A DNA stretch of 64,000 nucleotides from an uncultured Rikenellaceae bacterium (GCA_963802145.1 CAWDHN010000012.1:291567-355566), one strand, 5' to 3'. Shown: positions 10,740 through 28,630, numbered from the stretch's first letter. Notes: a model not told the origin generated them from the letters alone. Numbers and translations are program-made.

Positions 10740-12410
10740 ATGCGAAAAAATCCCTTTTGCACCCTTGTATTAATATTTCTGTTGTTATTCGCCGGCTGCC
10801 GTCAGGGGAGCAACCCGGCCTCAGGACCGGGGAAGAAATCCGGGACTCCAATTACAGCCGCAACTGATGATTTCTACCAGGAGACAAGTCAGGAGGCAGG
10901 ACTCGATTTTGTTCACTCCATCGGCGATGACGACCTCACCAATATTATCCAGTCAGACGGCGGAGGCGCTGCCTTTTTCGACTTTGACCAGGATGGCTTC
11001 ATAGATATTTATGTGTGCAGCGGTACATGGCTTGAAGGATTCAGCAAGAGCGAAAAGCCATCTGAAATGCCCGGGAATCGCCTTTACAGGAACAGGGGCA
11101 ACGGATCATTTGAAGATGTTACGAAGAAGGCAGGTGCCAGCGGGCCATGGTACACCATGGGAGTGGTAGCCGGTGATTTCAACAATGACGGCTACCCTGA
11201 TCTTTTTCTCAGCAATTACGGAGCTAATGTCCTGCTGAGGAATGACCGCAACGGAACATTCACTGATGTAACAAAAAAAGCAAATGTTGCCGGCGGGAAT
11301 GAGTGCAGCGTCGGTGCCGCATGGGCGGATTATGACAATGACAGCTTTCTCGATCTCTATGTGGGCAATTATCTTGCCTTTGATCCGGATTACAAGTATT
11401 ACTATGCACCTGACGGATTTCCGGGACCAATGGCCTACGATGCCCAGAAGGATGTCCTTTACCATAACAACGGCGACGGTACCTTTGAAGATGTAACTGA
11501 GAAAATGGGAATCAGGGACATTGACGGAAGGGCAATGGGAGTCGGTGCAGCTGATTATGACGATGACGGGTTCATCGATATCTTCGTTGCCAACGATCAC
11601 ACATTGAACTATCTGTGGCACAACGATGGCGGCAAGGGATTTACAGATAAGGGAACCATGTCGGGAACCGGCTTCAGTCAGGGTGGAGAAGCCACCGTAA
11701 GCATGTCAGTCGACTTTGCCGATTATAATAACGACGGACTGCTTGACCTGTTTGTTTCGGATGACACCTATTGCTCCCTTTATGAGAATCTGGGCAACGG
11801 GGTATTCTCTGACAGGGGAGTCTCATCTAATATCTCAATGCAGGCTGCACAGTTCGTAGGATGGTCGTCTTCGTTCATGGATTTTGATAATGACGGTGAT
11901 CAGGACATATTCAAAACCAACGGCGCACTGAAACATCTGTATGGCCAGGAAGATCAGATTTTTGAAAATCAGGGGAACGGATTATTCAAGGATATTTCTC
12001 TGGAGCTCGGCAGGTATTTCAGCGAGGAACATGTTGGAAGAGGTGCATGCATCGGGGATTACGACAATGATGGCGATCTCGATATCTTCATAGTCAATCT
12101 TAACAGCAGGGCAGTTTTTCTCAGGAATAACAAGGGGAATCAGAACAACTGGCTTATGCTTGGACTGGAAGGTACTGTAAGCAACAGGGAAGGGATAGGG
12201 GCAAGGGTGAAGATAACATCCGGAGGCAAGACACAGATAGCACAGAGAAAAACAACCACCGGCTACCTTTCCCAGAATGATCCGAGAATTCATTTCGGCC
12301 TGGCAGGCAATAATATGGTCGAAAGGATCGAGATAAAATGGCCCTCGGGAAAGGTACAGATCCTTGAAAATGTAAAAGCCAACCAGATACTCGAAGTAAA
12401 GGAACCTTAA
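10740..12410 (+). CDS. CRTAC1-family FG-GAP/VCBS-repeat lipoprotein with a C-terminal ASPIC/UnbV domain
   Basis: Lipobox (LLLFAGC). Repeated FDFDQDGFIDIY, GDFNNDGYPDLF, ADYDNDSFLDLY, ADYDDDGFIDIF, ADYNNDGLLDLF, MDFDNDGDQDIF, GDYDNDGDLDIF. UnbV/ASPIC-type C-terminus (GIGARVKITSGGKTQIAQRKTTTGYLSQNDPRIHFGL..IEIKWPSG). Confidence 0.85.
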   Translation: MRKNPFCTLVLIFLLLFAGCRQGSNPASGPGKKSGTPITAATDDFYQETSQEAGLDFVHSIGDDDLTNIIQSDGGGAAFFDFDQDGFIDIYVCSGTWLEGFSKSEKPSEMPGNRLYRNRGNGSFEDVTKKAGASGPWYTMGVVAGDFNNDGYPDLFLSNYGANVLLRNDRNGTFTDVTKKANVAGGNECSVGAAWADYDNDSFLDLYVGNYLAFDPDYKYYYAPDGFPGPMAYDAQKDVLYHNNGDGTFEDVTEKMGIRDIDGRAMGVGAADYDDDGFIDIFVANDHTLNYLWHNDGGKGFTDKGTMSGTGFSQGGEATVSMSVDFADYNNDGLLDLFVSDDTYCSLYENLGNGVFSDRGVSSNISMQAAQFVGWSSSFMDFDNDGDQDIFKTNGALKHLYGQEDQIFENQGNGLFKDISLELGRYFSEEHVGRGACIGDYDNDGDLDIFIVNLNSRAVFLRNNKGNQNNWLMLGLEGTVSNREGIGARVKITSGGKTQIAQRKTTTGYLSQNDPRIHFGLAGNNMVERIEIKWPSGKVQILENVKANQILEVKEP

Positions 12411-12425
12411 AGCCACTGGCCCTCT

Positions 12426-13856
12426 ATGATTAAGCGGATACTCATTTTGAGTGAAATTATTTTGGTGGGGCTGGCTTGTACGATAAGTATATCGTGCGGT
12501 AAACATGCCTCAGATGATAATAAACTGATCCTTACGGAAGCTCCCGGAAATGTAAACCCGCCTGATTATTCAGGCGGGGCATCATGGCGTAATTTGCCCG
12601 GTGCAAGGATCAGTTCAATCGATTTAAAAAGATCCGGTTCACAAAAAACACTGACAGGGGATTTTTATTCAGCCTGCTTCCCTGAAATTTCTTATGACGG
12701 AAAGTTCATGCTCTTTACAGGTCAGCATAATGAAAGTGATCCATGGCAGATATGGGAAATGAACCTGAAGACTCTTAAATACAGGCAGGTTACTTCAGGC
12801 ACGGAAGATTGTGCTGACCCCGTCTATCTGCCGGGTGAGCGAATTGTATTCAGCAGACTGACTGTCAATGATACGGTTAAGTCGGCACGCTGCCTTTATA
12901 CCTGCAATGCCGATGGCTCGGACCTCACACAGATAACATTCAGCCCTGATGACAATCTTGCCACAACGGTATTAAAAGATGGCCGCCTGCTTACAGTCAG
13001 ACACAGGTTACTGCCGGATCAGGGAGGACCAATGCTGGCAGTTATGCGACCTGACGGCACAAAAGCTGAAAAGTTCTACTCTGGTCCGGGAAATAACATA
13101 CACCTGAACCGCGCACATGAAACTGATGATGGCACTGTCATATTTGCTGAATCGTACGGTGAAAGCCCTGCCAGATACAGACTGGTTTCAATACTATATA
13201 ACAGACCATTGCATTCAAGAACTGACCTGACATCATCGGTCCCCGGGGATTTTTATAATGTACTTCCGCTCAGGCCCGACAAATATCTTGTCTCCTACCG
13301 TAAATCAGATTCAGATCGTTTTGCGCTTTATGAGTTTAATCCTGAAAAGGGATCACTCGGACCGGAAGTCTTTATTGAAAATGATTATCACATACTTGAT
13401 ATCGTCAGCGTCAAACCGCATGAGAGACCAAAAAAACTTCCAAGCGAAGTGGATGTGCAGGTGAAAACAGGGTTGCTTTTATGCCAGGATATTAACTTCA
13501 AGGATCCTTTTCTTCCGGAGAATTCCTCCTTAATGAAAAAAGCCCTGAAGATTGAGGTGCTGGGCGTTGATACAACCTATGGAGTAGTAGATGTGGAAAA
13601 CGACGGTTCATTTCAGCTGAAAGTGATGGCAGATAAGCCTTTCCGTATACGAACACTTGATAAGGACGGCAATGTTGTCGGCGGTCCGGGTTCATGGTTA
13701 TGGTTGCGACCGAATGAACGGCGGGGATGTATAGGATGCCACGAGAATCCTGAGCTGGCTCCTGAAAACATAGTGTCACTTGCAGTTAAAAAATCACCTG
13801 TTATAATACCTGTTCATATAACAGATGTCAAAGAGAAGATTGTTGAACTTGAATAG
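12426..13856 (+). CDS. Exported lipoprotein with a TolB/PD40-like beta-propeller region and one C-terminal haem c motif (CXXCH); resembles hydrazine-synthase-alpha middle-domain proteins
   Basis: Lipoprotein signal (LACTISISCGK). PD40-like segments (PEISYDGKFMLFTG, YTCNADGSDLTQITFSP, MRPDGTKAEKF). Single CXXCH, CIGCH, at nt 13728-13742 in the context WLWLRPNERRGCIGCHENPELAPE. The HzsA-middle-domain resemblance is from memory of that family, not from a search. Confidence 0.55.
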   Translation: MIKRILILSEIILVGLACTISISCGKHASDDNKLILTEAPGNVNPPDYSGGASWRNLPGARISSIDLKRSGSQKTLTGDFYSACFPEISYDGKFMLFTGQHNESDPWQIWEMNLKTLKYRQVTSGTEDCADPVYLPGERIVFSRLTVNDTVKSARCLYTCNADGSDLTQITFSPDDNLATTVLKDGRLLTVRHRLLPDQGGPMLAVMRPDGTKAEKFYSGPGNNIHLNRAHETDDGTVIFAESYGESPARYRLVSILYNRPLHSRTDLTSSVPGDFYNVLPLRPDKYLVSYRKSDSDRFALYEFNPEKGSLGPEVFIENDYHILDIVSVKPHERPKKLPSEVDVQVKTGLLLCQDINFKDPFLPENSSLMKKALKIEVLGVDTTYGVVDVENDGSFQLKVMADKPFRIRTLDKDGNVVGGPGSWLWLRPNERRGCIGCHENPELAPENIVSLAVKKSPVIIPVHITDVKEKIVELE

Positions 13857-13857
13857 T

Positions 13858-15903
13858 ATGGGAAGATTCGTAAAAATTATTATACCTGCGGCAATCCTTG
13901 TTATTCTTGGTTTTGTAATCTATAAGCCTTATCACAGGTGGGCCAGGGAACATGTCAATAATCTGACTGCTACAACTGACCACCCGCTGAAATGCGCATC
14001 GTGCCACCTTTATATTCAAAAAACAGGGCCTGTTTCAAAGATTGTCAATGCGAAATACTATTCGCCGTTTAATCTGGCATCGTCACCTGATGGAAAATTC
14101 CTTTATGTGGTTGCAGAGGAAGGCGATGCATTGCTGGTTGTAAACACTGAAAAGAACAAAGTCACGAAGGAGATTAAGGTAGGTGTCCGTCCGCACACAG
14201 TTGTCGTGAGCAGCGACGGGAAGACTGCCTATGTAAGCAACCAGTGGTCAGATAATGTGTCGGTAATTGATCTTGAAGAATACATCGTCACAGAGACACT
14301 TAAGACGGGGGGAGGACCGGCCGGCCTTACCCTCAGCGCTGACGGGAATTGGCTTTATGCAGCCAATTCATTTTCATCCGACCTGTCAATAATCGACCTT
14401 GCTTCAGGTGTTGAGCGGAACAGGCTGCTTACAGGGAATAATCCCACCGGAGTACAATTAAGTCCTGATGGAAACCTGGTGATGGTCACCAGCCGCCGGA
14501 CACTTGGGTTACCATATGGGGATTCTTTAAGGTGCGAGCTTACGGTGGTGAATGACAAAAAGCAGAGGGTTGCTGAACGCCTCGATATTAAACAGGCCTA
14601 TATGATGGAGAATATTGCCTTTACTCCTTCGGGCGACCTGGCAATAATTCCCCTTATAAGGCCTAAAAACAATGTCCCGACACTGCAGATCGAAAGAGGA
14701 TGGATGATGACAAACGGTATAGGGATCATTGAACAGAAACCTCCGGGAAGGACCATACAGTTGCTTCTTGACGAACCCAATGCCTATTATGCCGATCCCT
14801 TTGATATTGAAATAACTCCGGACGGGAAAAAAGCTTTTGTTTCACATGCGGGGGTCGATCGTATATCTGTAATTGATATAGACGCAATACGGAAACTTAT
14901 TTCTGAGTCGGACGACAGGATGCTTACTGCATATTCCAACTACCTGGGCATAAGCAGCAGAATAGTTCTCAGACGTATTCCCACGGGAGCAAACCCCAAG
15001 GGAATGGCCTTGTCACCAGATGGGAACAAGCTTTATGTTGCTGAGCATCTTGAGGACAGAATAGCCGTAATCAGCACTGAAAGCCTTGAGACAATCGGTA
15101 ACATACCCCTCGGCGGACCACGCAGGATAACAGTAGCCCGTGAAGGCCGCCGTCTGCTCAACAATGCCGGAGGCACATTCCAGAATCAGTATTCATGTTA
15201 TACATGTCATCCTGATGTACATGAAGACGGGCTGGTCTACAACATGGCATCGAAAGATATGGGTCGCAATGTGACAAATACGCAATCGCTCAGAAACATC
15301 GGGGAGACTCCTCCTTATAAATGGAACGGGAAAAACCAGAGTATCTACAAGCAGGACGGAATGCGATTTTCGACAGTTCTTACAAGAACCGAGGCTTTCA
15401 GTTATAAGGAACTTGACGCTCTTACGGCATACGTAATGGCAGGAATACCCAATCCGCCAAATCTGCAATACAATCCTGATGGAGAACTTACTGATTCTCA
15501 AAGACGCGGTAAGGAGATTTTTGAAAGAACACATGATTTCAACGGAGTAGAAATACCGGTTTTCAACCGCTGTGTCACCTGCCATCCTGCTCCCTTTTAT
15601 ACCAATAAGAAAATGGTGGATGTCGGCACCCTTGCGGCCAGTGACGATTCAATCTTTTTTGACACGCCGCATCTTAACAATATAGTCTATTCGCCGCCTT
15701 ACCTTCATGATGGCCGTGCTGCTACCCTCGAAGAGATATGGACCATCTATGGGAAAACCGAAGAACATGGGGCGGTCAATGACCTCACAAAAACCAATCT
15801 TAACGATCTGGTGGAATATCTGAAATCTCTCAGGGATGAGGAGTATGATAAAAAACCCGCTTCAATAAACCAGGCCTCTTTTGCTCAAAAAAAGGTGAAA
15901 TAA
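13858..15903 (+). CDS. Membrane-anchored tri-haem protein: N-terminal CXXCH, YVTN-type beta-propeller, and a C-terminal di-haem cytochrome c peroxidase/MauG-like domain
   Basis: N-terminal TM helix (FVKIIIPAAILVILGFVIY). CXXCH motifs: CASCH 13993-14007, CYTCH 15196-15210, CVTCH 15571-15585. YVTN-like repeats (SPDGKFLYVVAEEGDALLVVN, SSDGKTAYVSNQWSDNVSVID, SADGNWLYAANSFSSDLSIID, SPDGNKLYVAEHLEDRIAVIS). CCP signature context (TPHLNNIVYSPPYLHDGRAATLEEIW). I prefer the ATG at 13858, 1 nt after the upstream stop, over the track start at 13825. Confidence 0.75.
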   Translation: MGRFVKIIIPAAILVILGFVIYKPYHRWAREHVNNLTATTDHPLKCASCHLYIQKTGPVSKIVNAKYYSPFNLASSPDGKFLYVVAEEGDALLVVNTEKNKVTKEIKVGVRPHTVVVSSDGKTAYVSNQWSDNVSVIDLEEYIVTETLKTGGGPAGLTLSADGNWLYAANSFSSDLSIIDLASGVERNRLLTGNNPTGVQLSPDGNLVMVTSRRTLGLPYGDSLRCELTVVNDKKQRVAERLDIKQAYMMENIAFTPSGDLAIIPLIRPKNNVPTLQIERGWMMTNGIGIIEQKPPGRTIQLLLDEPNAYYADPFDIEITPDGKKAFVSHAGVDRISVIDIDAIRKLISESDDRMLTAYSNYLGISSRIVLRRIPTGANPKGMALSPDGNKLYVAEHLEDRIAVISTESLETIGNIPLGGPRRITVAREGRRLLNNAGGTFQNQYSCYTCHPDVHEDGLVYNMASKDMGRNVTNTQSLRNIGETPPYKWNGKNQSIYKQDGMRFSTVLTRTEAFSYKELDALTAYVMAGIPNPPNLQYNPDGELTDSQRRGKEIFERTHDFNGVEIPVFNRCVTCHPAPFYTNKKMVDVGTLAASDDSIFFDTPHLNNIVYSPPYLHDGRAATLEEIWTIYGKTEEHGAVNDLTKTNLNDLVEYLKSLRDEEYDKKPASINQASFAQKKVK

Positions 15904-15915: not shown

Positions 15916-17109
15916 ATGTCTCACAAATATTTAATTAAGTACTCAGCTTTTACAATCATCCTGGCAGCAATTGTACTGGCTGGCATAATGCTTTTAAAAA
16001 GAGCGGATAAATCTGAAAAGCCGGTGAAGAGTGAACATATGTCCGTTTCAGGTACCTATACAAACAGTTCAGACAAAGATCTTCCGGGCAGTTCGGGTTT
16101 TATAAAAGAAGCAAAGGAAATGCCTGTCTATGGCAACTGGCGTAACTTCACAACAAAAGACGGACTGCTTTCCGATCATGCCTATACGGTGCGCATCATC
16201 GGAGACAGCGTGCTTGTTGGCACTCACGAGGGTCTTGCAGTCTACTCCGGGGGGAAATGGCGTAATTATACCACTAATGACGGATTGGCTCATAATGGTG
16301 TGGTGTCAATCGATTACAGCAAACTGACAGGCGATATCTGGATTGGAACCCTGGGGGGCCTGAACCGTTGGTCATCCGGTAAATTTGAAACTTTCAACCA
16401 GTTTAACAGCGGCATGCCTAACGATCTGGTCTATTGCGTTTATTGTGACGGGAAAGACGTGTGGGTTGCAACCGGAGGCGGAGCAGGACATTATGACACC
16501 TTTACAAGGGTGTGGGAAATATTCACTGAACAGAATGCCCCGATGCATGAGCCCTGGACCTATGGCGTTTCAACCGGCGATGGCAAGGCATTTATCGCTG
16601 CCTGGGGAGGAGGAGTGATAGAGTATAATATGGCAACCAGGCACTTCAGGGATTATGTCGACCCTGACGGCTTTATGGAAATAGATCTTCAGCCTGATGA
16701 TGGTATTATCCACGACATTACCACAGCTACAGCTTATGCAGAGGGTATCCTGTGGGTTTCAACTTACTTCGGGATGAGCCGGTATGACGGCAAAAACTGG
16801 AAGGGCTATTTTGATCACGACAGCGGCCTGGCAAGCAATTTTATCAACTTCCTCAGGGCTGAAGGCCGGAAGGTATTTGTTTGCAGCGATAACGGATTAA
16901 GCAGCACAGACGGGACCACATGGGTTACATATAAAAAGGACGATAACAGTGAAAACGGGAAGGCCATAATTACAAACGGAACAGAAAAAAAGGAGATCCC
17001 CTTATCACCTTCAATAGCACACAATTTTATTATCGGCGTGGATGCCGATGAAAATTACCTGTGGGTTGCTACCTCAAAAGGGGTCAGCCGTGGAGAACTT
17101 ATGAGATAA
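15916..17109 (+). CDS. Membrane-anchored beta-propeller protein with two-component-regulator propeller (Reg_prop) repeats and no kinase or output domain
   Basis: N-terminal TM helix (AFTIILAAIVLAGIMLL). Repeats of the Reg_prop type (TTKDGLLSDHAYTVRI..VLVGTHEGLAVY; TTNDGLAHNGVVSIDY..IWIGTLGGLNRW; SGMPNDLVYCVYCDGKDVWVATGGG). Confidence 0.65.
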   Translation: MSHKYLIKYSAFTIILAAIVLAGIMLLKRADKSEKPVKSEHMSVSGTYTNSSDKDLPGSSGFIKEAKEMPVYGNWRNFTTKDGLLSDHAYTVRIIGDSVLVGTHEGLAVYSGGKWRNYTTNDGLAHNGVVSIDYSKLTGDIWIGTLGGLNRWSSGKFETFNQFNSGMPNDLVYCVYCDGKDVWVATGGGAGHYDTFTRVWEIFTEQNAPMHEPWTYGVSTGDGKAFIAAWGGGVIEYNMATRHFRDYVDPDGFMEIDLQPDDGIIHDITTATAYAEGILWVSTYFGMSRYDGKNWKGYFDHDSGLASNFINFLRAEGRKVFVCSDNGLSSTDGTTWVTYKKDDNSENGKAIITNGTEKKEIPLSPSIAHNFIIGVDADENYLWVATSKGVSRGELMR

Positions 17110-17156: not shown

Positions 17157-17732
17157 ATGGAGAACAGGCAGCTACTTATAGATCCGTCAAGAATCACGGA
17201 TGGAGAACGGGAAGAAATGATAAAATTAGGGATACTTTCTGAAGATAACCGTATACGTGAATACATATATCCTGAGCTTCACAGGGAGCGCCCGCCGATT
17301 GAGAAACATGTGGTTCATGCCCCGCAGGTTCTTAATGAGGCTTATAATTATCAAAAACCATCCTCCTTCTCCAGGGCATTAAGGCTTGAATTCGGAGGCT
17401 ATAAGATCTTGCTTATATCTGGCACTGCCAGTGTTAATGAAGAGGGCAAAGCCGAACACATCGGTGATTTCAAAGCACAGGCCTGGAGGACTTACAGGAA
17501 TATCACCACCCTGTTGTCTGCTGAGGATATGACGTGGCATGATGTAGTAAGGACCACCAACTATCTGAGGGACATTGAACGTGACTATGAGGAGTTTAAT
17601 AAGATCCGGACTTCCTTCTTCCGATGGCTGAATCTTGACCCGCTGCCTGCCAGCACCGGAATCCAGGCAAGGCTTTGCTGGGAAACCCTCCTTGTGGAGA
17701 TCGAGGCTTATGCAGTTTGTAAAATCAAATAA
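17157..17732 (+). CDS. YjgF/RidA-fold (endoribonuclease L-PSP superfamily) protein with an N-terminal extension of about 70 aa; no signal peptide
   Basis: Core ILLISGTASVNEEGKAEHIGDFKAQAWRTYRNITTLLSAEDMTWHDVVRTTNYLRDI...STGIQARL...LVEIEAYA. The SGTAS motif (canonical RidA has SGQ) is what I recall from the chorismatase (FkbO/Hyg5/XanB2) branch, which is unverified. I prefer the ATG at 17157 (MENRQLL). The track start at 17061 overlaps the upstream gene. Confidence 0.65.
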   Translation: MENRQLLIDPSRITDGEREEMIKLGILSEDNRIREYIYPELHRERPPIEKHVVHAPQVLNEAYNYQKPSSFSRALRLEFGGYKILLISGTASVNEEGKAEHIGDFKAQAWRTYRNITTLLSAEDMTWHDVVRTTNYLRDIERDYEEFNKIRTSFFRWLNLDPLPASTGIQARLCWETLLVEIEAYAVCKIK

Positions 17733-19076: not shown

Positions 19077-19955
19077 ATGGAGTCAGATAATTACAACGAT
19101 CCTGCAGTGATCGGAGGATGTTCAGTTCACGTCAGGGTGGACAGAAAGTCAAAACCTGATCCGACAATTGTTGATGTAAAGGGAATAAAGTTCGGATCTG
19201 CAGAGGTTGTCATTATTGCCGGACCCTGTTCGGTTGAAAGCCGCGAACAAATGATGGAGACAGCTAAGGCTGTCAGGTCAGCAGGAGGAGTGATTTTAAG
19301 GGGAGGTGCCTTCAAACCCCGTTCGTCTCCCTATAATTTCCAGGGACTGGGAGAGGAAGGACTGAAATTGCTTCAGGAGACCAGAAGTGAAACAGGGTTG
19401 CCAATTGTCACAGAAGTTATGGATACCCGGATGGTTGAACTGGTTGCCGGATATGCTGATATGCTGCAGATAGGCTCACGGAATATGCAGAACTATCCAT
19501 TGCTGAAGGAGGTCGGGATGCTCCGCAAACCGGTATTGCTGAAACGCGGAATGATGGCAACAATAGAGGAGTTTTTGCTGGCTGCAGAATACATTCTTAA
19601 CCAGGGAAACGAACAGGTAATCCTGTGCGAAAGGGGGATACGCACTTTTGAAACCGCCACCAGAAATACCCTTGATCTTGGCGCTGTGCCTATGCTTAAG
19701 CATCTGAGCCATCTTCCGGTGATTGTTGATCCGAGTCACGGAACCGGACACCGGTGGATGGTGCCTTCAATGGCCAAAGCAGCTGTTGCTGCCGGAGCCG
19801 ACGGACTCATAATGGAAGTACATTATAAACCCCATGAGGCCCTGTGCGACGGACATCAATCGCTGAGCCCCGATGAATTTACACTTCTGATGACTGATCT
19901 GAGGAAGATTGCACAAGCTGTCGGCAGGGATATTTATCCTCATGAGATTAAGTAA
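19077..19955 (+). CDS. 3-deoxy-7-phosphoheptulonate (DAHP) synthase, type I-beta
   Basis: [152 protein letters not shown]. This is the I-beta DAHPS pattern, not the KdsA pattern. Confidence 0.88.
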
Positions 19956-21092: not shown

Positions 21093-24000
21093 ATGAAAAA
21101 GTATTGTCTCTTTGTAGTGACCACTCTCCTCATCACATTATTTACGGGATGCAGGAACAGTGGTGAAAAATCCACGCAAAAATCGACGGATCTGATTACA
21201 GCCAGAACACTTGGGCTGGCATATCTTGAGGAGTTTAAGCTGGAAGAGGCTGAAAAGGAATTCCTGAAGTTCATTGATCTGGCCCCCGATGATAAGTTTG
21301 GCTATGCAAATCTCGGTCTTACTTACTTAAGGATGGCTAATTATCCGGATGCAGAAAAAGCACTCGCCAAAGCAATAAAGATCGATCCCAAAGATCCGGA
21401 TGTCAGGCTTATCCTGGCCACTGTATATAAAATGAACAATGAGCGTGAAAAGGCTATTAAAGAACTGTTAAGTGCACTTGAGTTTGCTCCTGATCATAAA
21501 AAAATACTTTACGAGATTTCCGAGTTGTATTCCACCCAGCCTGACGAAGATTCATGGAAACAACGCGAGAACTATATTGAAATACTTGTCCGGAATGCAC
21601 CCGATAATCTTGTCCCGCGCCTCAACCTTACAGATATCCTCATCAGGAAAGGTGAATTCGATAAGGCAGTTGAGCAGATGGAGATAATCAATAAGCAGTT
21701 TCCGGAATTCCCCAGGGAGGCTGTTGAATACTTTGACAAGACGCTCTCCTTACTGAGAAAAAAGGATAGGGAAAATGCAATTATCCAGTTTACTATTTTT
21801 CATAATTATCTGAAAGTTACCCCCCCTTACCAGGCCGGGATCATGGATCTGAAGGGCCCCGGAGGATCCCTTATCGGATTTCCGGTCATAACTTTCGACA
21901 GACGGGGTCCTTCATCCGGTAATGAAGAAAACAGGTCGCTGCTCGATATTATCAGATTTACCAATGTGGCTGCGGGAGCCGGTCTGGACATAATTCCGCG
22001 AACCGAAGAGGGTACCAATGCGGAATTCAGGTTTTCGTCCCACGTCGTAACATGCGATTATGACGGCGACGGAGATATTGATATCTATGCCGGCAGCTAT
22101 GATCCGGCATCCTCATCATATAAGCATTTTTTGCTCAGAAACGACATGGGCAAATATGCTGATGTGACCCGGGAAGCAGGCCTGAATCATTCCGGAATTG
22201 AAGCATCTGCAGCTTTTGCCGACTTTGATAATGACGGTTTCCCCGATCTGTTTGTTATGAAGGAGGGGGGCGACATGCTCTACAGAAATACAGGAAAGGG
22301 CACCTTTGAAGATATAACAGCCAGATCAAAGGCAGGCAGCAGGACCGGGGGTAAAAAGGCTCTTTTCTTCGATATGGATCACGACGGTGATCTGGATCTT
22401 TTTGAGATACTTCCGCAGTCGAATCTCTATCTGAGAAATAATTCAGACGGGACATTTGAGGATCAGTCTGCAAAACTTGGCCCGCAGACCGCAGGAATTA
22501 TTTCCACAGCCGCAGCTTTCGGAGATTTTGATGATGACGAGGATATCGACTTCATTGTTGTCAGTAAAAACTCAGATGTCTGCCTGTATTCAAATCAGAG
22601 ACAGGGCGTTTTCAGGGATATTGCTGCCGAAAGCGGACTGAAAGGGTATGAAGGAGCCGGGGCGGTTGCTGTAGGTGATTATAATAACGACGGATATCTT
22701 GACCTCTTTATCGGTTCTCTCACCGGAGAAAATCATGCGCTGTTAAGGAACCTGCGAAACGGCACTTTTGAGAAGGAGAAGAATAATTCAGAAATGCTCC
22801 GGTCACTTGAAAAGGTAAATGTCTTCGATGCTTCATTCATAGATTTCAATAATGACGGATTCCTGGATATTCTCGCGGCAGGAGAAGCACAGGGGATGGA
22901 TGGTCGCGGGATCAATCTCATTTACAATGACGGAAAAGGAAATTTCAGGAATGTTTCAGAATTATTGCCGTCTGAAGTAAAATCAGGAAAACAGACAGCA
23001 ATTTTCGATTATAACGATGACGGTGACCTCGATGCGCTGATTGCCGGAATAAATGGCGGAGTTGCCCTGCTAAGGAATGACGGCGGGAATAACAACCATT
23101 TTATAACAATGAAGCTGGTGGGACTGAGAGCAGGCAGCGCAAAAAATAACTACTTCGGCATCGGAGCGAAAGTCGAAATGCGTGCCGGCGATCTCTATGA
23201 AACAATGGTTGTAACCAATCCCAATATCCACTTTGGGATAGGCAGCAATTCGAGAGCCGATATCATCAGGATCAGATGGACTAACGGAGTGCCTCAGAAC
23301 ATTTTCATGCCGGTATCAGACCAGTCACTGGTAGAGCAGCAGACCCTCAAGGGTTCATGTCCTTTCCTCTATGGATGGAACGGGGAGGAATATGTTTTTG
23401 TGAAGGATATCTTATGGAGAAGCGCTCTCGGGATGCCGACCGGAATAATGGGCGGCACCACCTCATATGCCTTTGCTGATGCCTCGGATGATTATCTGAA
23501 AATTCCGGGCGAGATGCTGAAGCAGAACAATGGGAATTATATTATCCAGGTCACATCCGAACTCTGGGAAACCATTTACATTGACGAACTTGAACTTGTT
23601 GCAGTGGACCACCCCGATTCACTTGATATATTTGTTCCTGAACAATTTGGTCCTCCTCCCTTCCCGGGACCGAAAATCCTTACCGTTAAAGAGAAACATG
23701 CACCGGTATCAGCCGTGGATTCGGAAGGGAATGACGTGCTTTCCTTTATATCCCGGAAAGATGACATCTATCTTGCAGGTTTCAAACCGGGCAAATACCA
23801 GGGAATAACTGAAATGAGGGACCTTATAATTGATCCCGGGCAAATTGATGTGTCAGGAAGATTTTATCTTTTTATGAATGGATGGATCTTCCCGACCGAT
23901 GCAAGCATAAACGTGGCAATATCACAATCAGATGACATCAAAGTGACTCCTCCTTTAATCCAGGTTTTGAATAAAAAGGGTGAGTGGGTGACAGTGACCG

Positions 24001-24665
24001 GCAGTGTTGGGTTTCCGATGGGGAAAGATAAAACCGTAATAGCCGATCTTTCGGGCAAATTCCTGTCAGAAGACCACCGGGTAAGGATCAGGACAAATAT
24101 GGAAATATACTGGGACCAGATCTTTTTCGCTGAAGATCTGCCCGATGCTCCTGTTGTAAATAATGCTCTCAGTCCTTCATCTGCTGATCTTCACTTCAGG
24201 GGATTCTCTGAGCCATTCAGAAAAGGAAGCCGTTACGGACCTCACTGGTTCGATTATTCTGTTGTTGAAAAGGGACCGAAATGGAGAGACCTGACAGGAA
24301 ATTATACGCGGTTCGGTGATGTCCTGCCACTTCTGTCAGAGTCGGATAACAAATATATTATAACAAATGCCGGCGATGAGACTACTGTAAGCTTCTCTGC
24401 TGCGGAATTACCTCCCTTACCGGAAGGATGGAAGCGGGACTTCCTTATCCGAAGCGTCGGATGGGTTAAAGACGGAGACCTGAACACCGCTTTCGGCAGC
24501 ACGGTTCTGCCTCTGCCGTTCCATGGAATGAAAAGCTACCCTCCGTCAGAAAGCGATACTTACCCGGATACTCCTGATTTGCAGAAATATAACCGGGAGT
24601 ATAATACAAGGGTGGTAACAGCGGATGAATATTTAAATGCGTTAAGAGTAAATGATAAAAAATAG
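21093..24665 (+). CDS. Large lipoprotein: TPR repeats, FG-GAP/VCBS repeats, an ASPIC/UnbV domain and a C-terminal region of about 480 aa with unknown function (CRTAC1 family)
   Basis: Lipobox (LFTGC). TPR-like N-terminus (YANLGLTYLRMANYPDAEKALAKAIKIDPKD). FG-GAP motifs (CDYDGDGDIDIY, ADFDNDGFPDLF, FDMDHDGDLDLF, GDFDDDEDIDFI, GDYNNDGYLDLF, IDFNNDGFLDIL, FDYNDDGDLDAL). UnbV-type segment (GIGAKVEMRAGDLYETMVV..IRIRWTNG). Confidence 0.85.
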   Translation: MKKYCLFVVTTLLITLFTGCRNSGEKSTQKSTDLITARTLGLAYLEEFKLEEAEKEFLKFIDLAPDDKFGYANLGLTYLRMANYPDAEKALAKAIKIDPKDPDVRLILATVYKMNNEREKAIKELLSALEFAPDHKKILYEISELYSTQPDEDSWKQRENYIEILVRNAPDNLVPRLNLTDILIRKGEFDKAVEQMEIINKQFPEFPREAVEYFDKTLSLLRKKDRENAIIQFTIFHNYLKVTPPYQAGIMDLKGPGGSLIGFPVITFDRRGPSSGNEENRSLLDIIRFTNVAAGAGLDIIPRTEEGTNAEFRFSSHVVTCDYDGDGDIDIYAGSYDPASSSYKHFLLRNDMGKYADVTREAGLNHSGIEASAAFADFDNDGFPDLFVMKEGGDMLYRNTGKGTFEDITARSKAGSRTGGKKALFFDMDHDGDLDLFEILPQSNLYLRNNSDGTFEDQSAKLGPQTAGIISTAAAFGDFDDDEDIDFIVVSKNSDVCLYSNQRQGVFRDIAAESGLKGYEGAGAVAVGDYNNDGYLDLFIGSLTGENHALLRNLRNGTFEKEKNNSEMLRSLEKVNVFDASFIDFNNDGFLDILAAGEAQGMDGRGINLIYNDGKGNFRNVSELLPSEVKSGKQTAIFDYNDDGDLDALIAGINGGVALLRNDGGNNNHFITMKLVGLRAGSAKNNYFGIGAKVEMRAGDLYETMVVTNPNIHFGIGSNSRADIIRIRWTNGVPQNIFMPVSDQSLVEQQTLKGSCPFLYGWNGEEYVFVKDILWRSALGMPTGIMGGTTSYAFADASDDYLKIPGEMLKQNNGNYIIQVTSELWETIYIDELELVAVDHPDSLDIFVPEQFGPPPFPGPKILTVKEKHAPVSAVDSEGNDVLSFISRKDDIYLAGFKPGKYQGITEMRDLIIDPGQIDVSGRFYLFMNGWIFPTDASINVAISQSDDIKVTPPLIQVLNKKGEWVTVTGSVGFPMGKDKTVIADLSGKFLSEDHRVRIRTNMEIYWDQIFFAEDLPDAPVVNNALSPSSADLHFRGFSEPFRKGSRYGPHWFDYSVVEKGPKWRDLTGNYTRFGDVLPLLSESDNKYIITNAGDETTVSFSAAELPPLPEGWKRDFLIRSVGWVKDGDLNTAFGSTVLPLPFHGMKSYPPSESDTYPDTPDLQKYNREYNTRVVTADEYLNALRVNDKK

Positions 24666-26349
24666 CTTTGCGAACTCTGCGACTTTGTTGCGGACTTTCA
24701 GGTTAAAATGGATCTTCTGTATCAGCCTGGTATTTGTCTCTTATTCCATGACAGCCCAGAAGCGGGTAATCAGATTCACTGATGTCACAAAACGGTCCGG
24801 CATAGATTTCATATATACATTCGGAGATCTCTCCTATAAAAACATTATTGAAAGCAGCGGGTCTGGAATCACAGTATTCGATTACAACAACGACAATCTG
24901 ATGGATCTGTTCATGATGAACGGAACCTGGCTTGAAGGCATATCTGATCCGGACGGGAAGAAATTCATCAACACTCCCGACAGGCTCTACAGAAACAATG
25001 GCAACGGAACATTTACCGAGGTCGCTGAAAAGGCAGGAGTCAATGATACCAACTGGAGCATGGCTGCCGGAGCAATAGATTATGATAATGACGGAGACCA
25101 GGATCTCTACCTGCTTAATTATGGTCCGAATGTTTTCTTCAGGAATAATGGCAACGGAACATTTACTGACATTACAAAGCTTACAGGCCTCCGTGGTCCG
25201 GACAAGTTAAACGGATTTGTAAAATGGAGCATCGGAGTCTCCTTCTGGGACTATAACCTCGACGGCAGGCTTGACGCCATGGTCGGGAATTTCCTCGCGT
25301 TCGATCCGGATTACTTTACACCCACGACCCCCGATCTGATGCCTCAACCATCAGAATATAAAGGTCAGGCTTCGATGCTGTATGAACAACAGCCTGACGG
25401 AACATTCAAAGATGTCACCGAAAAGAACGGATTGTATTATCCCGATTCAAAATGCATGGGCCTTACTGTATTTGATTATGATGATGACGGGGACCTTGAT
25501 ATTTTTCAGGCCAATGATCACCATCTGAACTACATGTTCAGGAACGATAATGGTGTCTACAGGGAGGTTGGCGTTGAAATAGGCGTGGCTGCCAACAGCC
25601 ATGGCATAGGGACCGGTTCAATGCATGGAACAATAGGTGATGTTGACGGTGACGGATTAATTGACATCCTTGTCGTTGATCTTTCATACGGAGCCCTTTA
25701 CAGGAACAAAGGCAATGGATTCTTTGAAGACATTACCGCATCAAGCGGTATCCAGGTGCCTCTGGCAGGGAAGGGAGGTTGGGCTTCCGCCTTCATTGAT
25801 TTTGACAATGACGGTGACCTCGATATAGTATCGGCAAACGGCACGGCAGAGGAGCTCATTCTGCAATACCCGCTCCTGCTTGAGAATGACGGGAAAGGAC
25901 ATTTCAGGGATACGGGAAAGGAGTATGGAGAATATTTCAGAACGAAACGTTCGGGCAGGGGACTTGCCGTGTGGGATTATGATAATGACGGAGATATGGA
26001 TATCATTGTATCGCATGTCGATCTTAACGGAACTGCAGCGCTTCTCCGAAACGACGGAGGGAATTCGAATCACTGGCTTGGCCTTACATTGAAAGGCAGC
26101 AAGGGACCGGCCTCAGCAATAGCCGCCAAGGTGGTCGCAACAGCCGGGGGGAAGAGACAGGTACTTGTCAATCAATGGACAACAGGCTATCTGAGCAATA
26201 ATGATCCCAGGCTGCATATAGGGCTGGGAAGTGCAAAATCAATCGATACTCTTGAAATATTCTGGACAGGAGGCAAGAAAGAGGTTTTTTACAATGTACC
26301 TGCTGACAGATATATTACAATAATGGAAGGAAAGGGAATTTTAAAGTAA
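24652..26349 (+). CDS. CRTAC1-family FG-GAP/VCBS-repeat protein with an ASPIC/UnbV C-terminus
   Basis: Signal-like N-terminus. Motifs FDYNNDNLMDLF, IDYDNDGDQDLY, WDYNLDGRLDAM, FDYDDDGDLDIF, GDVDGDGLIDIL, IDFDNDGDLDIV, WDYDNDGDMDII. C-terminus AAKVVATAGGKRQVLVNQWTTGYLSNNDPRLHIGL..LEIFWTGG. It overlaps the upstream gene by 14 nt. Confidence 0.85.
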   Translation: MIKNSFANSATLLRTFRLKWIFCISLVFVSYSMTAQKRVIRFTDVTKRSGIDFIYTFGDLSYKNIIESSGSGITVFDYNNDNLMDLFMMNGTWLEGISDPDGKKFINTPDRLYRNNGNGTFTEVAEKAGVNDTNWSMAAGAIDYDNDGDQDLYLLNYGPNVFFRNNGNGTFTDITKLTGLRGPDKLNGFVKWSIGVSFWDYNLDGRLDAMVGNFLAFDPDYFTPTTPDLMPQPSEYKGQASMLYEQQPDGTFKDVTEKNGLYYPDSKCMGLTVFDYDDDGDLDIFQANDHHLNYMFRNDNGVYREVGVEIGVAANSHGIGTGSMHGTIGDVDGDGLIDILVVDLSYGALYRNKGNGFFEDITASSGIQVPLAGKGGWASAFIDFDNDGDLDIVSANGTAEELILQYPLLLENDGKGHFRDTGKEYGEYFRTKRSGRGLAVWDYDNDGDMDIIVSHVDLNGTAALLRNDGGNSNHWLGLTLKGSKGPASAIAAKVVATAGGKRQVLVNQWTTGYLSNNDPRLHIGLGSAKSIDTLEIFWTGGKKEVFYNVPADRYITIMEGKGILK

Positions 26350-26361
26350 AACCCATAAAGT

Positions 26362-27690
26362 ATGAATAATCAATACATAAACAAGGTGGTCGATCTGACC
26401 AATCCAGCAAAGAATACAATTTATAACATGACGCATGAGGAAGCCGTTGAAGCTGTCAGGTCAGGAAACACAGAAGCGGTCAGGAAGATAGATGGTCAGT
26501 TTTCACTTGTCTCCGTCGATGGGAAAACTATCCGGATGGCAAGGTCTATTGGCCGTCCGATCCGTTATTTCATCGCTAAAGTACCGGCCGGACCACAACT
26601 GGTGATTGCCGAACGGATTGATGTCATTTACGAGTATCTTAAGCAGGAAGGTCTTGATCACCAGTTCCATCCCTCTTATACAAGGATGGCCCCTGCGCAC
26701 TATATAACAAAAATAGAACTCCTGGGCTGTCCCGATCCCAACCCGGTATATGAAAGGTTCTTTAAACCGGAGAGAAACAAATACTCTTCTTCAGATATTT
26801 CCCGGTTAGGTGAACTTTACATAAGAACACTTTATAATGAAATAAAGAAATGGCTGAGGTTCCGTGCCAGTGCCGGACCCGTTGGCATTACCTTTTCAGC
26901 CGGAGTTGACAGCGGGGCTCTTTTCCTCCTGACTTACCAGGCTCTCAGGGAACTTGGCGAAAGCCCGTCGAGGCTTAAAGCCTTTACACTTAGTATCGAC
27001 GGAGGGGGCGAGGATCTGGCACAGGCCAGGAAATTCCTCGATGACCTGGATCTGGGATTTTTCCTTGAAGTAATTGAAGCAGATTATTCAAGTCTCGACT
27101 GGAAGAAAACCGTAAAAGTTGTTGAGGATTACAAACCTCTTGACATACAGTCAGCTACAATGAACATGGCGCTTTTGCGAGGCATACGTTCCCGGTATCC
27201 GGACTGGAAATATATGATTGACGGCGACGGTGGGAATGAAAACCTGAAGGATTATCCCATCGAAGAGAATCCGGAACTTACGATCCGGAGTGTGCTGAAC
27301 AACCTGATGCTTTACCATGAAGGATGGGGAGTCGATTCAATAAAACACTCACTCACCTACTCCGGAGGACTCAGCAGGGGATTTATGAGGACATATACCA
27401 CAGGCGAAAGCCTTGGCTTTGAATCTTTCAGTCCCTATACGTTGCCAAATGTAATTGAAGTCTCGGAAGGCATTCCATTCATAGATATCACTGACTGGGA
27501 TCATAATAAGCTGTATGATCTTAAGGGACAGATTGTTTCTGACGGAGTGAAAGCAGTCACGGGAATGGCCATGCCTGTATTTCCCAAGAGGCGTTTTCAG
27601 CATGGGGCAGCTTCGGGAGATGCCTTCAGAAACCATTTTCCTGAAAAGGAGATAGCCTACCGGAAAGAGTTTCTTTCACAATATGAATGA
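26362..27690 (+). CDS. Asparagine-synthetase-B-like PP-loop ATP-dependent amidoligase lacking the N-terminal Cys nucleophile
   Basis: PP-loop-like SAGVDS at nt 26896-26913 (GITFSAGVDSGALFLLT). The N-terminal region resembles a degenerate AsnB glutaminase fold (IDGQFSLVSVDGKTIRMARSIGRPIRYF). The protein starts MNNQY, so it has no Cys2. No signal peptide. Confidence 0.55.
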   Translation: MNNQYINKVVDLTNPAKNTIYNMTHEEAVEAVRSGNTEAVRKIDGQFSLVSVDGKTIRMARSIGRPIRYFIAKVPAGPQLVIAERIDVIYEYLKQEGLDHQFHPSYTRMAPAHYITKIELLGCPDPNPVYERFFKPERNKYSSSDISRLGELYIRTLYNEIKKWLRFRASAGPVGITFSAGVDSGALFLLTYQALRELGESPSRLKAFTLSIDGGGEDLAQARKFLDDLDLGFFLEVIEADYSSLDWKKTVKVVEDYKPLDIQSATMNMALLRGIRSRYPDWKYMIDGDGGNENLKDYPIEENPELTIRSVLNNLMLYHEGWGVDSIKHSLTYSGGLSRGFMRTYTTGESLGFESFSPYTLPNVIEVSEGIPFIDITDWDHNKLYDLKGQIVSDGVKAVTGMAMPVFPKRRFQHGAASGDAFRNHFPEKEIAYRKEFLSQYE

Positions 27691-28630
27691 CGATCCCGGG
27701 TTCGTTATCGATGACCGGTGGATATTGTCCATACGGGGGGAGAAGAACGCCGTTGACCCGCGCAAACCATATGCATGGCTGGTTGAGAAAGAACGCACCG
27801 CGTCAGGAATAATAGAGGATACAGCGATTATTTTTCTCACAAACAGGGAATGTCCGTTCCGTTGCCTGATGTGTGATCTGTGGAAAAACACCACCGATGA
27901 TTCTGTGCCGGGAGGGGCTATCCCTGAGCAGATTGAATGGGCTTTAAAACAACTGCCTGCAGCAAGGAACCTTAAACTATATAACAGCGGAAGCTTTTTT
28001 GATGAGAGAGCCATACCTGCAGAGGATTATAAAAGCATTGCATCACTTGTCAGCGATTTTGAGACAGTTATTGTAGAAAGCCATCCCAGGCTGATCAATG
28101 AAAAATGTCTGAATTTCAGAAAAATGCTTAAACCTGATTTACAGGTTGCTCTTGGTCTCGAAACCGTACATGCCGGGGTGCTCAGGAAACTCAATAAACA
28201 AATGACCCCGGAGGATTTCAGTAAAGCGGTCAGTTATCTTAAGCAGCATGACATACTGTCAAGGGCGTTTATTCTGCTGAGACCTCCCTTCCTTTCGGAA
28301 TCAGAAGGCATCTTCTGGGCAGAAAGGTCAATCGATTTTGCCTTCAGTGCCGGAGTGGAATGCTGCACGGTTATTCCTGTGCGGGCAGGTAACGGGGCAA
28401 TGGATCTGTTAATGGAAAAAAACTGCTTTGAACAGCCAGATATCCGCTCCCTGGAAACAGTCCTGGAATATGGTATCAGGCTCAATGCAGGTCGTGTTTT
28501 TGCAGATGTGTGGGATTTGGAAATGTTTTCCGGTTGTAAGAAATGTCTCGATGAAAGGACCAACCGGTTAATTGCCTTAAATCTGAACCAGGAAATAACC
28601 GGTCCGGTAAGATGTACATGCAGCTCGTAA
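27683..28630 (+). CDS. Radical SAM enzyme
   Basis: CX3CX2C at nt 27851-27874 (NRECPFRCLMCDLW). TIM-barrel-type continuation (LKLYNSGSFFD, VIVESHP, LGLETVHAGVLRKLNK). It overlaps the AsnB-like gene by 8 nt. I cannot assign a subfamily by eye. Confidence 0.8.
   Translation: MNDDPGFVIDDRWILSIRGEKNAVDPRKPYAWLVEKERTASGIIEDTAIIFLTNRECPFRCLMCDLWKNTTDDSVPGGAIPEQIEWALKQLPAARNLKLYNSGSFFDERAIPAEDYKSIASLVSDFETVIVESHPRLINEKCLNFRKMLKPDLQVALGLETVHAGVLRKLNKQMTPEDFSKAVSYLKQHDILSRAFILLRPPFLSESEGIFWAERSIDFAFSAGVECCTVIPVRAGNGAMDLLMEKNCFEQPDIRSLETVLEYGIRLNAGRVFADVWDLEMFSGCKKCLDERTNRLIALNLNQEITGPVRCTCSS

Follow-up and report, generated by a model that had tools for sequence, protein, structure and literature searches.

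The window analysed here, a stretch of 64,000 nucleotides from an uncultured Rikenellaceae bacterium (GCA_963802145.1 CAWDHN010000012.1:291567-355566), carries twelve plus-strand open reading frames (ORFs; g1 to g12) at positions 10740-28630. Two of them, g2 and g3, are with near certainty distant homologues of the alpha subunit and of a beta-gamma fusion of hydrazine synthase (HZS). They do not represent a hydrazine synthase or an anammox enzyme, because the residues that define hydrazine synthesis are absent. The best explanation for the locus as a whole is a conserved unit around a distant non-anammox HZS homologue that works by the mechanism proposed below, and we assign it a probability of about 0.5; the mechanism taken on its own is a tentative proposal that we would not rate as probable. 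The core of the unit belongs to a functionally uncharacterised family of HZS homologues that was recently described (PMC12758564). New here are an eight-gene module (g1-g8) with a built-in aromatic-supply arm that is common to deeply divergent clades, a separable add-on of CRTAC1-type, AsnB-like and radical S-adenosylmethionine (SAM) genes (g9-g12), and a Cys-to-Asp change at position gamma165 in Bacteroidales and Flavobacteriales. The coordinates of all features are compiled in Table 1.

The relationship of g2 to HZS alpha is documented by several independent comparisons. The protein matches the Pfam model of the hydrazine synthase alpha middle domain (PF18582) with 4.9e-18, its best match in a sequence search of the PDB is chain A of the HZS structure (5c2v_A, 2.5e-18), and its best NCBIfam model is NF052339 (HZS alpha) with 83 bits against a cut-off of 800. 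Foldseek retrieved the same chain as best hit (1.1e-19, TMq 0.66) for an AlphaFold2 model with a mean predicted local distance difference test (pLDDT) score of 73, and TolB followed at 2e-10. The alignment to 5c2v_A ends at the CIGCH motif, of which C435, G437, C438 and H439 are kept in all 64 orthologues. With 476 amino acids compared to 782 in the HZS alpha chain, g2 has a single CxxCH motif and no counterpart of the HZS alpha residues past ~575. Its C-terminus lies 37 residues past the motif, thus indicating that the haem-alphaII domain is missing. HZS of Kuenenia stuttgartiensis (5C2V), in contrast, possesses four haems including the bis-His alphaII in the C-terminal alpha domain, and the iron of its haem alphaI is ligated by Tyr591, four residues past the motif His. 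The equivalent residue of g2 is Glu443, and a Glu is found here in 62 of 64 orthologues.

The beta-gamma fusion in g3 is evident from the PDB sequence search, in which residues 68-407 match HZS beta (5c2v_B, 4.8e-49) and residues 421-680 match HZS gamma (5c2v_C, about 1e-16 to 4.9e-16). The NCBIfam model of the fusion (NF052342) scored 231 bits against a cut-off of 1250, the beta model 209 against 560 and the gamma model 74 against 625; the scores of g2 and g3 hence amount to about a tenth to a third of the HZS equivalog cut-offs. The best Foldseek match is 5c2v_B (6.6e-34, TMt 0.89), and the runner-up is weaker by eleven orders of magnitude; the fold match to 5c2v_B pertains to the propeller, since the pLDDT of the AlphaFold2 model is below 50 beyond residue 420. 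The invariant H637 aligns with the ‘HG’ of HZS gamma, and the second haem may accordingly be bis-His ligated as in HZS. Two further differences concern residues of HZS gamma: gamma-His144, which is located near haem gammaI, is replaced by W489 as in the cytochrome c peroxidase (CCP)/MauG proteins, without exception in 77 orthologues, and gamma-Cys165, the third covalent haem link of HZS, corresponds to Asp500. Moreover, g3 is equipped with a membrane anchor and an additional membrane-proximal haem.

The cluster shares with K. stuttgartiensis HZS the propeller plus haem middle domain, the seven-bladed YVTN propeller, the CCP-like di-haem domain and the adjacency of the genes, whose order (alpha-like before beta-gamma-like) is the reverse of that in anammox HZS. 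The accessory genes differ as well, and the hosts are not anammox bacteria. Homologues of all three HZS subunits encoded side by side might nevertheless be taken as a genuine hydrazine synthase, i.e. anammox-type N-N bond formation in Bacteroidota, and a cold-seep study has argued that divergent HzsA proteins of ten phyla including Bacteroidota are functional (PMC11828985). We regard this as extremely unlikely. The profile scores are far too low (83 against 800, 231 against 1250), and haem alphaII, the ligand Tyr, gamma-His144 and gamma-Cys165 are all missing. A scan for CxxCH motifs across the 64-kb window detected no protein besides g2 and g3, and thus no candidate for a hydrazine dehydrogenase or an octahaem protein of the hydroxylamine oxidoreductase type. 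The cluster is furthermore present in isolates of the aerobic marine heterotrophs Maribacter and Lutimonas. The same negative conclusion was reached for the homologues by Hagglund et al. 2025 (PMC12758564), who found the hydrazine-synthesis residues not to be conserved and proposed no function; their alignment contains a two-residue gap at the alphaI Tyr region in clades I-III.

These authors sorted co-localised alpha-like and beta-gamma-like HZS relatives into four clades and recorded a CRTAC1 partner gene for clades I-III. In clade III, a CRTAC1 gene precedes an alpha-like gene whose product is devoid of the haem alphaII site and of the C-terminal ~100 residues, followed by a fused beta-gamma-like gene with exactly one additional haem motif and two genes for substrate-binding proteins downstream; the hit tables include proteins of Maribacter arenosus and Bacteroidales (PMC12758564). 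All five clade III traits are found in the window, namely in the order g1-g2-g3, the single-haem g2, the extra CASCH haem motif of g3 and the solute-binding proteins (SBPs) g6 and g8. Judged by gene order and motifs, the cluster corresponds to clade III. The statement of the initial annotation that no described pathway combines these families is therefore outdated for the core of CRTAC1, alpha-like, beta-gamma-like and two SBP genes, and still holds in that no function has been attached to it. The publication leaves g4, g5 and g7, the add-on genes g9-g12, the two-component system and the adjacent SusC/D unit unmentioned; nor does it report that g4, g5, g7 and both SBPs are shared with the clade that has the order alpha-CRTAC1-beta-gamma. 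Genes similar to hzsA and a fused hzsBC have also been described in metagenome-assembled genomes (MAGs) of Phycisphaerae, with the guess of a broader enzyme family (PMC10732223). In the cold-seep study, divergent HzsA was counted towards an expanded anammox potential; the study comprises 16 Bacteroidota MAGs, with Bacteroidales contigs predominating, and reports that divergent hzsA genes are transcribed in the sediments (PMC11828985). These divergent Bacteroidota genes probably belong to the same family as g2.

The state of the gamma-Cys165 column varies among the g3 orthologues. According to the family alignment, on which the assignment of this column is based, residue 500 (15355-15357) is Asp in 70 of 77 orthologues and Cys in seven. 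The Cys is present in loci L075, L079-L082, L086 and L087, which comprise those of Cytophagales and Gemmatimonadota and three others, and also in most of the distant representatives, whereas Asp is found throughout the Bacteroidales and Flavobacteriales lineage. This distribution suggests a loss of the additional covalent link to the haem inside clade III.

The initial annotation had described twelve co-directional ORFs in an operon-like layout, and the gene models stand. The coordinates were confirmed in the window sequence, the junctions range from a 14-nt overlap to a 47-nt gap, and the chosen internal starts at 13858 (g3), 17157 (g5), 17743 (g6) and 19942 (g8) are identical with independent gene calls on L001, a metagenome contig with 99.6% identity to the window. 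A crude hydropathy scan recovered the same division into eight products with a hydrophobic N-terminal segment (g1-g4, g6, g8-g10) and four without one (g5, g7, g11, g12). Pfam and NCBIfam profiles also reproduced the family assignments, i.e. FG-GAP_3 plus UnbV_ASPIC in three proteins, Reg_prop, Ribonuc_L-PSP, Peripla_BP_6 in two proteins, DAHP_synth_1 and weak matches to Asn_synthase and Radical_SAM; the HZS identity of g2 and g3 had gone unrecognised. The twelve genes are probably co-transcribed.

Relatives of g3 are numerous. They form 2711 clusters of 90% identity at E <= 1e-10 among 8000 candidates scored, and at least 577 matched stretches of a species-representative genome collection encode one. 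We analysed the conservation of the neighbourhood in the best 80 of these at least 577 loci by tblastn with the window proteins, and counted genes in the 41 species-level genome loci with complete 10-kb flanks (full-flank loci). The 80 loci derive mainly from Bacteroidales and Rikenellaceae MAGs, with representatives of Cytophagales and Cyclobacteriaceae, one Chlorobiota MAG and two Gemmatimonadota MAGs. Cultured carriers are the Flavobacteriaceae Maribacter arenosus, M. polysiphoniae DSM 23514 and Lutimonas saemankumensis. In the full-flank loci g4 and g6 are universal (41 of 41), g1 and g8 occur in 40, g2 in 39, g10 in 35, g7 in 34, g9 in 32 and g5 in 31; g1 is thus a partner that has been conserved alongside the HZS-like subunits. 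Order and orientation of the genes are maintained in Bacteroidales, Flavobacteriaceae, Cytophagales and the Gemmatimonadota and Chlorobiota MAGs, and a single one of 618 cluster-gene matches in the full-flank loci lies on the opposite strand. The neighbourhood is clearly conserved beyond the window, and the arrangement of g1-g12 is far more than chance.

A second, more distant clade allowed us to delimit the module. A scan of metagenome contigs with representatives that are only 39-41% identical to g3 recovered this clade, which originates from soil, peat and sediment and has a high G+C content (58-61%). Their operon has the order alpha-like, CRTAC1, beta-gamma-like, g4-like, g5-like, DAHP synthase (3-deoxy-D-arabino-heptulosonate 7-phosphate synthase; g7), SBP (g6) and a further SBP, and is flanked on both sides by opposite-strand genes in the four loci inspected. 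Among the 39 loci with enough downstream sequence, g4 is present in 37, g5 in 36, g7 in 35 and two SBPs in 36; g1 and g2 were found in 40-41 of the 44 loci with enough upstream sequence. The identity to the window proteins is 66% (median) for g5 and 55% for g7, compared to 30% for g2 and 39% for g3. This better conservation than that of the haem subunits indicates that g5 and g7 are integral to the module, and the minimal self-contained module therefore consists of the eight genes g1-g8. One could object that a housekeeping DAHP synthase and a RidA merely became embedded among exported proteins by chance, given that each family is individually common and that no known pathway links them. The conservation of order and strand across phyla down to 39% anchor identity, together with the single opposite-strand match, effectively refutes this scenario. 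We consider it very probable that g1-g12 form a functional unit in the window. The proposal that the twelve genes behave as one operon-like unit is upheld; the AsnB-like and radical SAM genes lie outside the core and travel with g9 and g10.

Tandem duplicates were observed in some related loci, namely two DAHP synthases in L041, two copies of g1 in L004 and L016, and two g8 matches in L008. Genes for EamA, acyl-CoA synthetase, sulfatase and formyltetrahydrofolate synthetase beside the module in other phyla are not conserved and were rejected as members.

The non-haem proteins of the module point to a small molecule. g5 is its most conserved protein, with a median identity of 79% in Bacteroidota. 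In the alignment to RidA structures, ‘PLPAS’ takes the place of the RidA sequence ‘PAR’ and the catalytic Arg (Arg105 of RidA) is absent; the equivalent residue is Ser in at least 90% of the orthologues and Ala in a few. Low scores were obtained with TIGR00004 (RidA; 43.6 against a cut-off of 106) and TIGR04444 (FkbO/Hyg5 chorismatase; 28.7 bits against 325), the latter a two-domain family of ~340 amino acids. A profile of the g5 orthologues retrieved RidA proteins at 1e-12, the chorismatase 5ag3 at 1e-7 and FkbO (4bps) at 1.7e-6, and the FkbO alignment includes a strongly conserved segment on the N-terminal side of the Rid core. By these comparisons g5 is related to RidA and to the chorismatases and is a member of neither. 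The DAHP synthase g7 reaches the curated cut-offs (TIGR01361, 401 against 267.75; NF006421, 453.8 against 335) and is missing from the Maribacter and Lutimonas loci. In secondary metabolism, it is a usual arrangement that a pathway-specific DAHP synthase is encoded beside chorismate-using enzymes. Among solved structures, g6 and g8 are most closely related to amino-acid-binding LivJ/K-type proteins (PDB sequence search), and no cognate permease or ATPase was found among the annotated genes of the twelve loci inspected in detail.

We propose the following tentative mechanism. g2 and g3 would form a membrane-anchored complex, in which two haem active sites are bridged by the propeller as in HZS. 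The gamma-like site would work as a CCP/MauG haem pair with Trp489 relaying electrons between the haems, and would activate a small oxidant such as H2O2, nitric oxide (NO) or hydroxylamine. The N-terminal haem of g3 would feed or drain electrons at the membrane and thereby link the complex to the membrane electron pool. The alpha-like haem may be the site where a second substrate reacts, which the tethered g6 and g8 would present and which would be a small amino or aromatic acid. When the operon is switched on, presumably by the upstream two-component system, g7 and the chorismate-fold protein g5 would raise the cytoplasmic supply of an aromatic precursor or co-substrate. The presence of a DAHP synthase beside a chorismate-fold protein, i.e. 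the pattern of precursor supply, suggests that this compound is aromatic. The initial annotation had spoken of an “envelope redox machine”, a term that reasonably describes a haem complex anchored in the membrane and homologous to HZS. Its further idea that the machine uses or senses an aromatic-derived small molecule made by the cytoplasmic enzymes receives indirect support, as g7 and g5 remain part of the minimal module even in loci whose haem subunits have no more than 30-40% identity.

Several points weigh against this proposal. We infer the formation of the g2/g3 complex and the mechanistic steps from homology and gene linkage, and the C-terminal half of g3 is modelled with low confidence, so that its putative gamma-like fold is supported by sequence similarity. 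g5 scores better with RidA than with the chorismatases and has half the length of the latter. Neither g5 nor g7 is strictly required in cis, since g7 is missing in Maribacter and Lutimonas and g5 in one Bacteroidales sub-clade. No exporter for a cytoplasmic product is encoded in the cluster, the partner of g6 and g8 could just as well be the histidine kinase or a transporter encoded elsewhere, and three or four CRTAC1-type proteins are left without an explained role. A bolder version has a slim chance of being correct: the eight-gene module may be a widespread periplasmic system and free-living sister of HZS, ancestral to anammox, in which the reduction of NO or hydroxylamine or the activation of peroxide at the gamma-like haem is coupled to N-N, N-O or C-N chemistry at the alpha-like haem, on an aromatic amine or amino acid that the DAHP synthase/chorismate-fold arm makes and the dedicated SBPs deliver.

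The superfamily of the gamma-like domain invites two other readings. g3 reaches 35.8 bits with CCP_MauG (PF03150; cut-off 25.6), and C447xxCH, C572xxCH and W489 are invariant. Its C-terminal part has the two CxxCH motifs, the PY(L/F/M)HDG stretch and the inter-haem Trp in common with CCP, MauG, MbnH and BthA, but shares its polypeptide with a propeller and has a second haem subunit as partner. The complex might thus serve as an envelope stress defence that reduces periplasmic H2O2, NO or hydroxylamine, induced by a CopRS/HprRS-like system, with g7 and g5 as stress-time replacements of damage-prone enzymes. The membership in a peroxidase superfamily with retained relay Trp is in agreement with this, and so are the best NCBIfam matches of the upstream regulator and of the kinase, the latter matched over its full length, i.e. 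heavy-metal CopR/CopS and peroxide-responsive HprR. DAHP synthases of E. coli are reportedly poisoned by H2O2 and superoxide (Sobota, Gu and Imlay 2014). Furthermore, haem gammaI of HZS binds NO (PMC12607021). The regulator matches are, however, all below the cut-offs, and neither in the distant clade nor in Flavobacteriaceae does the two-component system adjoin the module, while DAHP synthase and g5 persist in the distant clade. A simple detoxifying peroxidase would moreover need neither a second haem subunit nor two SBPs, an extra propeller and CRTAC1 partners, and we therefore judge a stress defence to be unlikely.

The other reading is a MauG-like maturation, in which the di-haem domain oxidises a residue of a partner (alpha-like subunit, CRTAC1 or SBP) into a cofactor and g11/g12 introduce a second modification. 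It would agree with the Trp relay typical of MauG and CCP, with the radical SAM enzyme encoded by the Bacteroidota version of the cluster, and with the weak matches of g3 to MbnH, MauG, SAM_quin_mod and the beta subunit of quinohaemoprotein amine dehydrogenase in NCBIfam (the latter also in Foldseek) and to BthA (6e1c) in the PDB sequence search. Yet HZS is a far closer relative of g3 than MauG, and the cluster contains no gene for a substrate protein known from MauG or MbnH. g11 and g12 are located in the cytoplasm, fall into none of the known peptide-modifying families and do not occur in the minimal module, and the tight junctions leave no space for a small precursor ORF, all of which makes this reading very improbable. 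Two known systems show partial parallels. The accessory operon of alcohol catabolism dependent on pyrroloquinoline quinone (PQQ) combines a YVTN propeller (TIGR03866) with a LivK-type binding protein (TIGR03863), and quinohaemoprotein amine dehydrogenase combines a propeller with a di-haem subunit and a radical SAM maturase; both combinations recur here. The underlying NCBIfam and Foldseek matches are weak and all far below the cut-offs, and the cluster differs from these systems in the lack of a PQQ or cysteine tryptophylquinone enzyme and of a permease or ATPase of the ATP-binding cassette (ABC) type. The preferred reading thus remains that of a conserved unit around a non-anammox HZS homologue.

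The four genes g9-g12, which directly follow g8 in the arrangement of the window, are a separable block. The genes g10-g11-g12 are located upstream of g1 in four loci (L054, L056, L069, L081), g11-g12 occupy this position in L047 behind a more distant FG-GAP gene, g9-g10-g11-g12 stand alone in L089 and L090, and the block was not found beside the module in the high-GC clade loci inspected. g11 and g12 always overlap or abut and track the CRTAC1 paralogues g9 and g10 rather than the haem genes. The orthologues of g11 are 72-82% identical; the protein begins with MNNQYIN and hence lacks the N-terminal Cys nucleophile (Cys2), retains a conserved PP-loop-like FSAGVDSG motif, and scores 32.8 with TIGR01536 (AsnB; cut-off 267). 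g12 has the CxxxCxxC motif (CPFRCLMC) and scores 113 bits with TIGR01210 (archaeosine RaSEA; cut-off 212), but its partner is the AsnB-like protein and not ArcS. No significant PDB relative of g11 or g12 was retrieved by sequence search. A role of both enzymes in the synthesis of a ribosomally synthesised and post-translationally modified peptide (RiPP), such as a lasso peptide, was rejected, as a precursor ORF would not fit in and neither a protease nor a RiPP recognition element partner is encoded. A survey of the literature on the function of bacterial UnbV/ASPIC or CRTAC1 proteins and on bacterial RaSEA homologues yielded nothing usable.

A DDE transposase gene (1887-3056) is located directly upstream of the stand-alone block in L089, which fits a mobile add-on or its recent separation from g1-g8. 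The genes downstream of g12 differ among related loci (L007, L088, L089, L090). In several Bacteroidales contigs (L007, L089, L090) g12 is followed by a pseudouridine synthase gene and then by Sulf_transp and rhodanese genes, and in L007 a gene for an Rrf2 regulator and one of the COX1 family, possibly NO-reductase-like, lie in between (11977-14662); none of these are present in the window.

The upstream flank of the cluster is formed by the OmpR-type regulator and histidine kinase pair, whose position directly before g1 agrees with the initial annotation. An OmpR-type regulator gene is found upstream of g1 in 20 of the 41 full-flank loci. Beyond it, a divergent SusC-SusD unit occupies the opposite strand (1-8059) and ends with a gene for a large FG-GAP/UnbV protein, whose reading frame is open for more than 1060 amino acids and runs past the start of the window. 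The statement that the cluster has no SusC/D is hence accurate within the twelve genes, which also contain no carbohydrate-active enzyme, and inaccurate for the adjoining genes. This adjacency suggests a SusC/SusD-linked acquisition locus, i.e. a polysaccharide utilisation locus without glycosidases, in which CRTAC1 proteins bind an imported polymer that is recalcitrant or not a carbohydrate, the haem complex attacks it by oxidative cleavage or modification, and the SBPs capture the amino or aromatic acids set free. In favour of it, the SusC-SusD-FG-GAP/UnbV unit divergently adjoins the regulator genes, a SusC-like gene is located at the same place in 14 of the 41 full-flank loci, and four CRTAC1-type proteins, among them three lipoproteins, are encoded in the locus. 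SusC genes are, however, very common in Bacteroidales, so that the adjacency alone is weak evidence. The unit is absent from the inspected loci of Flavobacteriaceae, Cytophagales and Gemmatimonadota and from four high-GC loci, and the cytoplasmic DAHP synthase would be left unexplained. We accordingly see little likelihood in an acquisition locus and retain the conserved unit around the HZS homologue as the favoured explanation.

Table 1. Positions in the window and assignment of the cluster genes, of motifs in g2 and g3, and of the upstream genes
Feature	Position	Strand	Assignment and basis
Large FG-GAP/VCBS + UnbV_ASPIC gene	2..3190	-	CRTAC1-type lipoprotein; FG-GAP_3 1.3e-71, UnbV_ASPIC 2e-21
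SusD-family gene	3310..4938	-	Outer-membrane lipoprotein; Pfam SusD_RagB 3e-32, SusD-like_3
SusC/RagA gene	4958..8059	-	TonB-dependent transporter; TIGR04056 857 bits (cut-off 368), Plug, CarboxypepD_reg
OmpR-family gene	8492..9193	+	Response regulator; best NCBIfam CopR/SilR and HprR types, all below cut-off
Histidine kinase gene	9213..10589	+	HAMP/HisKA sensor histidine kinase; best NCBIfam CopS/SilS type, full length, below cut-off
g1	10740..12410	+	CRTAC1-type FG-GAP propeller + UnbV_ASPIC lipoprotein; Pfam; lipobox LFAGC
g2	12426..13856	+	HZS-alpha-like mono-haem lipoprotein; TolB-like propeller, HZS_alpha middle domain, one haem c
g2 haem motif CIGCH (residues 435-439)	13728..13742	+	Aligns to haem-alphaI motif of HZS alpha
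g3	13858..15903	+	Fused HZS-beta-gamma-like subunit; N-terminal membrane anchor with extra haem, seven-bladed YVTN propeller, CCP/MauG-type di-haem domain
g3 extra haem motif CASCH (residues 46-50)	13993..14007	+	Directly after membrane anchor; in 75 of 77 orthologues
g3 haem motif CYTCH (residues 447-451)	15196..15210	+	HZS haem gammaI; aligned to gamma C102-xx-C105-H106; in 77 of 77 orthologues
g3 W489 to D500	15322..15357	+	W489 at gamma-His144, D500 at gamma-Cys165; alignment offset 39
g3 haem motif CVTCH (residues 572-576)	15571..15585	+	HZS haem gammaII; alignment; C572xxCH invariant
g4	15916..17109	+	Membrane-anchored beta-propeller; weak Reg_prop similarity (Pfam)
g5	17157..17732	+	Cytoplasmic YjgF/Rid-superfamily protein, 191 aa, conserved 80-aa N-terminal extension; Pfam, NCBIfam
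g6	17743..19065	+	Exported LivJ/K-type solute-binding protein; Peripla_BP_6
g7	19077..19955	+	Type I-beta DAHP synthase, catalytic barrel only; TIGR01361, NF006421
g8	19942..21069	+	Second, more divergent exported solute-binding protein; Peripla_BP_6
g9	21093..24665	+	TPR + FG-GAP + UnbV_ASPIC lipoprotein; C-terminal ~440 aa without assigned domain; first add-on gene
g10	24652..26349	+	CRTAC1-type FG-GAP + UnbV_ASPIC exported protein; Pfam
g11	26362..27690	+	Cytoplasmic AsnB-like PP-loop enzyme; weak Pfam, TIGR01536
g12	27683..28630	+	Radical SAM protein, TIGR01210 (RaSEA-like) group; overlaps g11 by 8 nt

The G+C content is 43-48% over the SusC/D unit and the twelve-gene cluster (window 1-28600) compared to 49-57% over 28600-64000. 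This contrast and the 62-67% identity of the DAHP synthases of the Gemmatimonadota clusters hint at horizontal transfer of the whole module. A scan of the whole window with Rfam detected no riboswitch or other family, and the matches of a sigma-70 promoter and terminator scan, with a tool that does not cover Bacteroidota promoters, were at about the level of shuffled sequence and all intragenic. Downstream of the cluster the other strand (28643-41359) carries a xylan/glucuronoxylan set without a SusC/D of its own, comprising glycoside hydrolases of families GH115, GH3, GH10 and GH67, a weak GH30-like protein, a sugar transporter of the major facilitator superfamily and a LacI regulator. The genes for GH115, GH30, GH3, GH10 and GH67 were rejected as members of the system due to the opposite strand, the different G+C content and the lack of conservation beside the cluster. 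The GH67 alpha-glucuronidase gene is followed by genes for a protein of the uroporphyrinogen decarboxylase family, an FGGY kinase, a 439-aa protein without Pfam match and a methylenetetrahydrofolate reductase-like protein with DUF5981 (41390-46684), which could, as pure speculation, be a methyl-transfer route for 4-O-methyl-glucuronate. A Nuo51-like flavoprotein gene and a molybdopterin oxidoreductase gene split into two overlapping ORFs in different frames (50814-51812, 51712-53565) are located at 49186-53565; the split may reflect a frameshift, a sequencing error or a truly two-part formate-dehydrogenase-like enzyme.

To our knowledge, hydrazine synthase was long thought to have no relatives. 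The locus described here clearly exemplifies the large uncharacterised family that probably gave rise to HZS, and thus bears on the origin of anammox. Since cultured Maribacter and Lutimonas carry the cluster (without g7), the function of HZS homologues is open to direct genetics and biochemistry. If the divergent hzsA genes of sediments (PMC11828985) belong here, the gene context and the residue pattern of the cluster suggest that their counts overestimate anammox. The association of a DAHP synthase and a YjgF-fold protein with an exported haem complex and two transporter-less SBPs is maintained across phyla; no known pathway explains this linkage, which points to a dedicated small-molecule co-substrate. 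Should the module indeed prove to be a free-living sister of HZS, it would represent a new nitrogen- or aromatic-transforming reaction in Bacteroidota, Gemmatimonadota and uncultured high-GC bacteria of soil, peat and sediment, and would reveal the ancestral activity from which anammox evolved.

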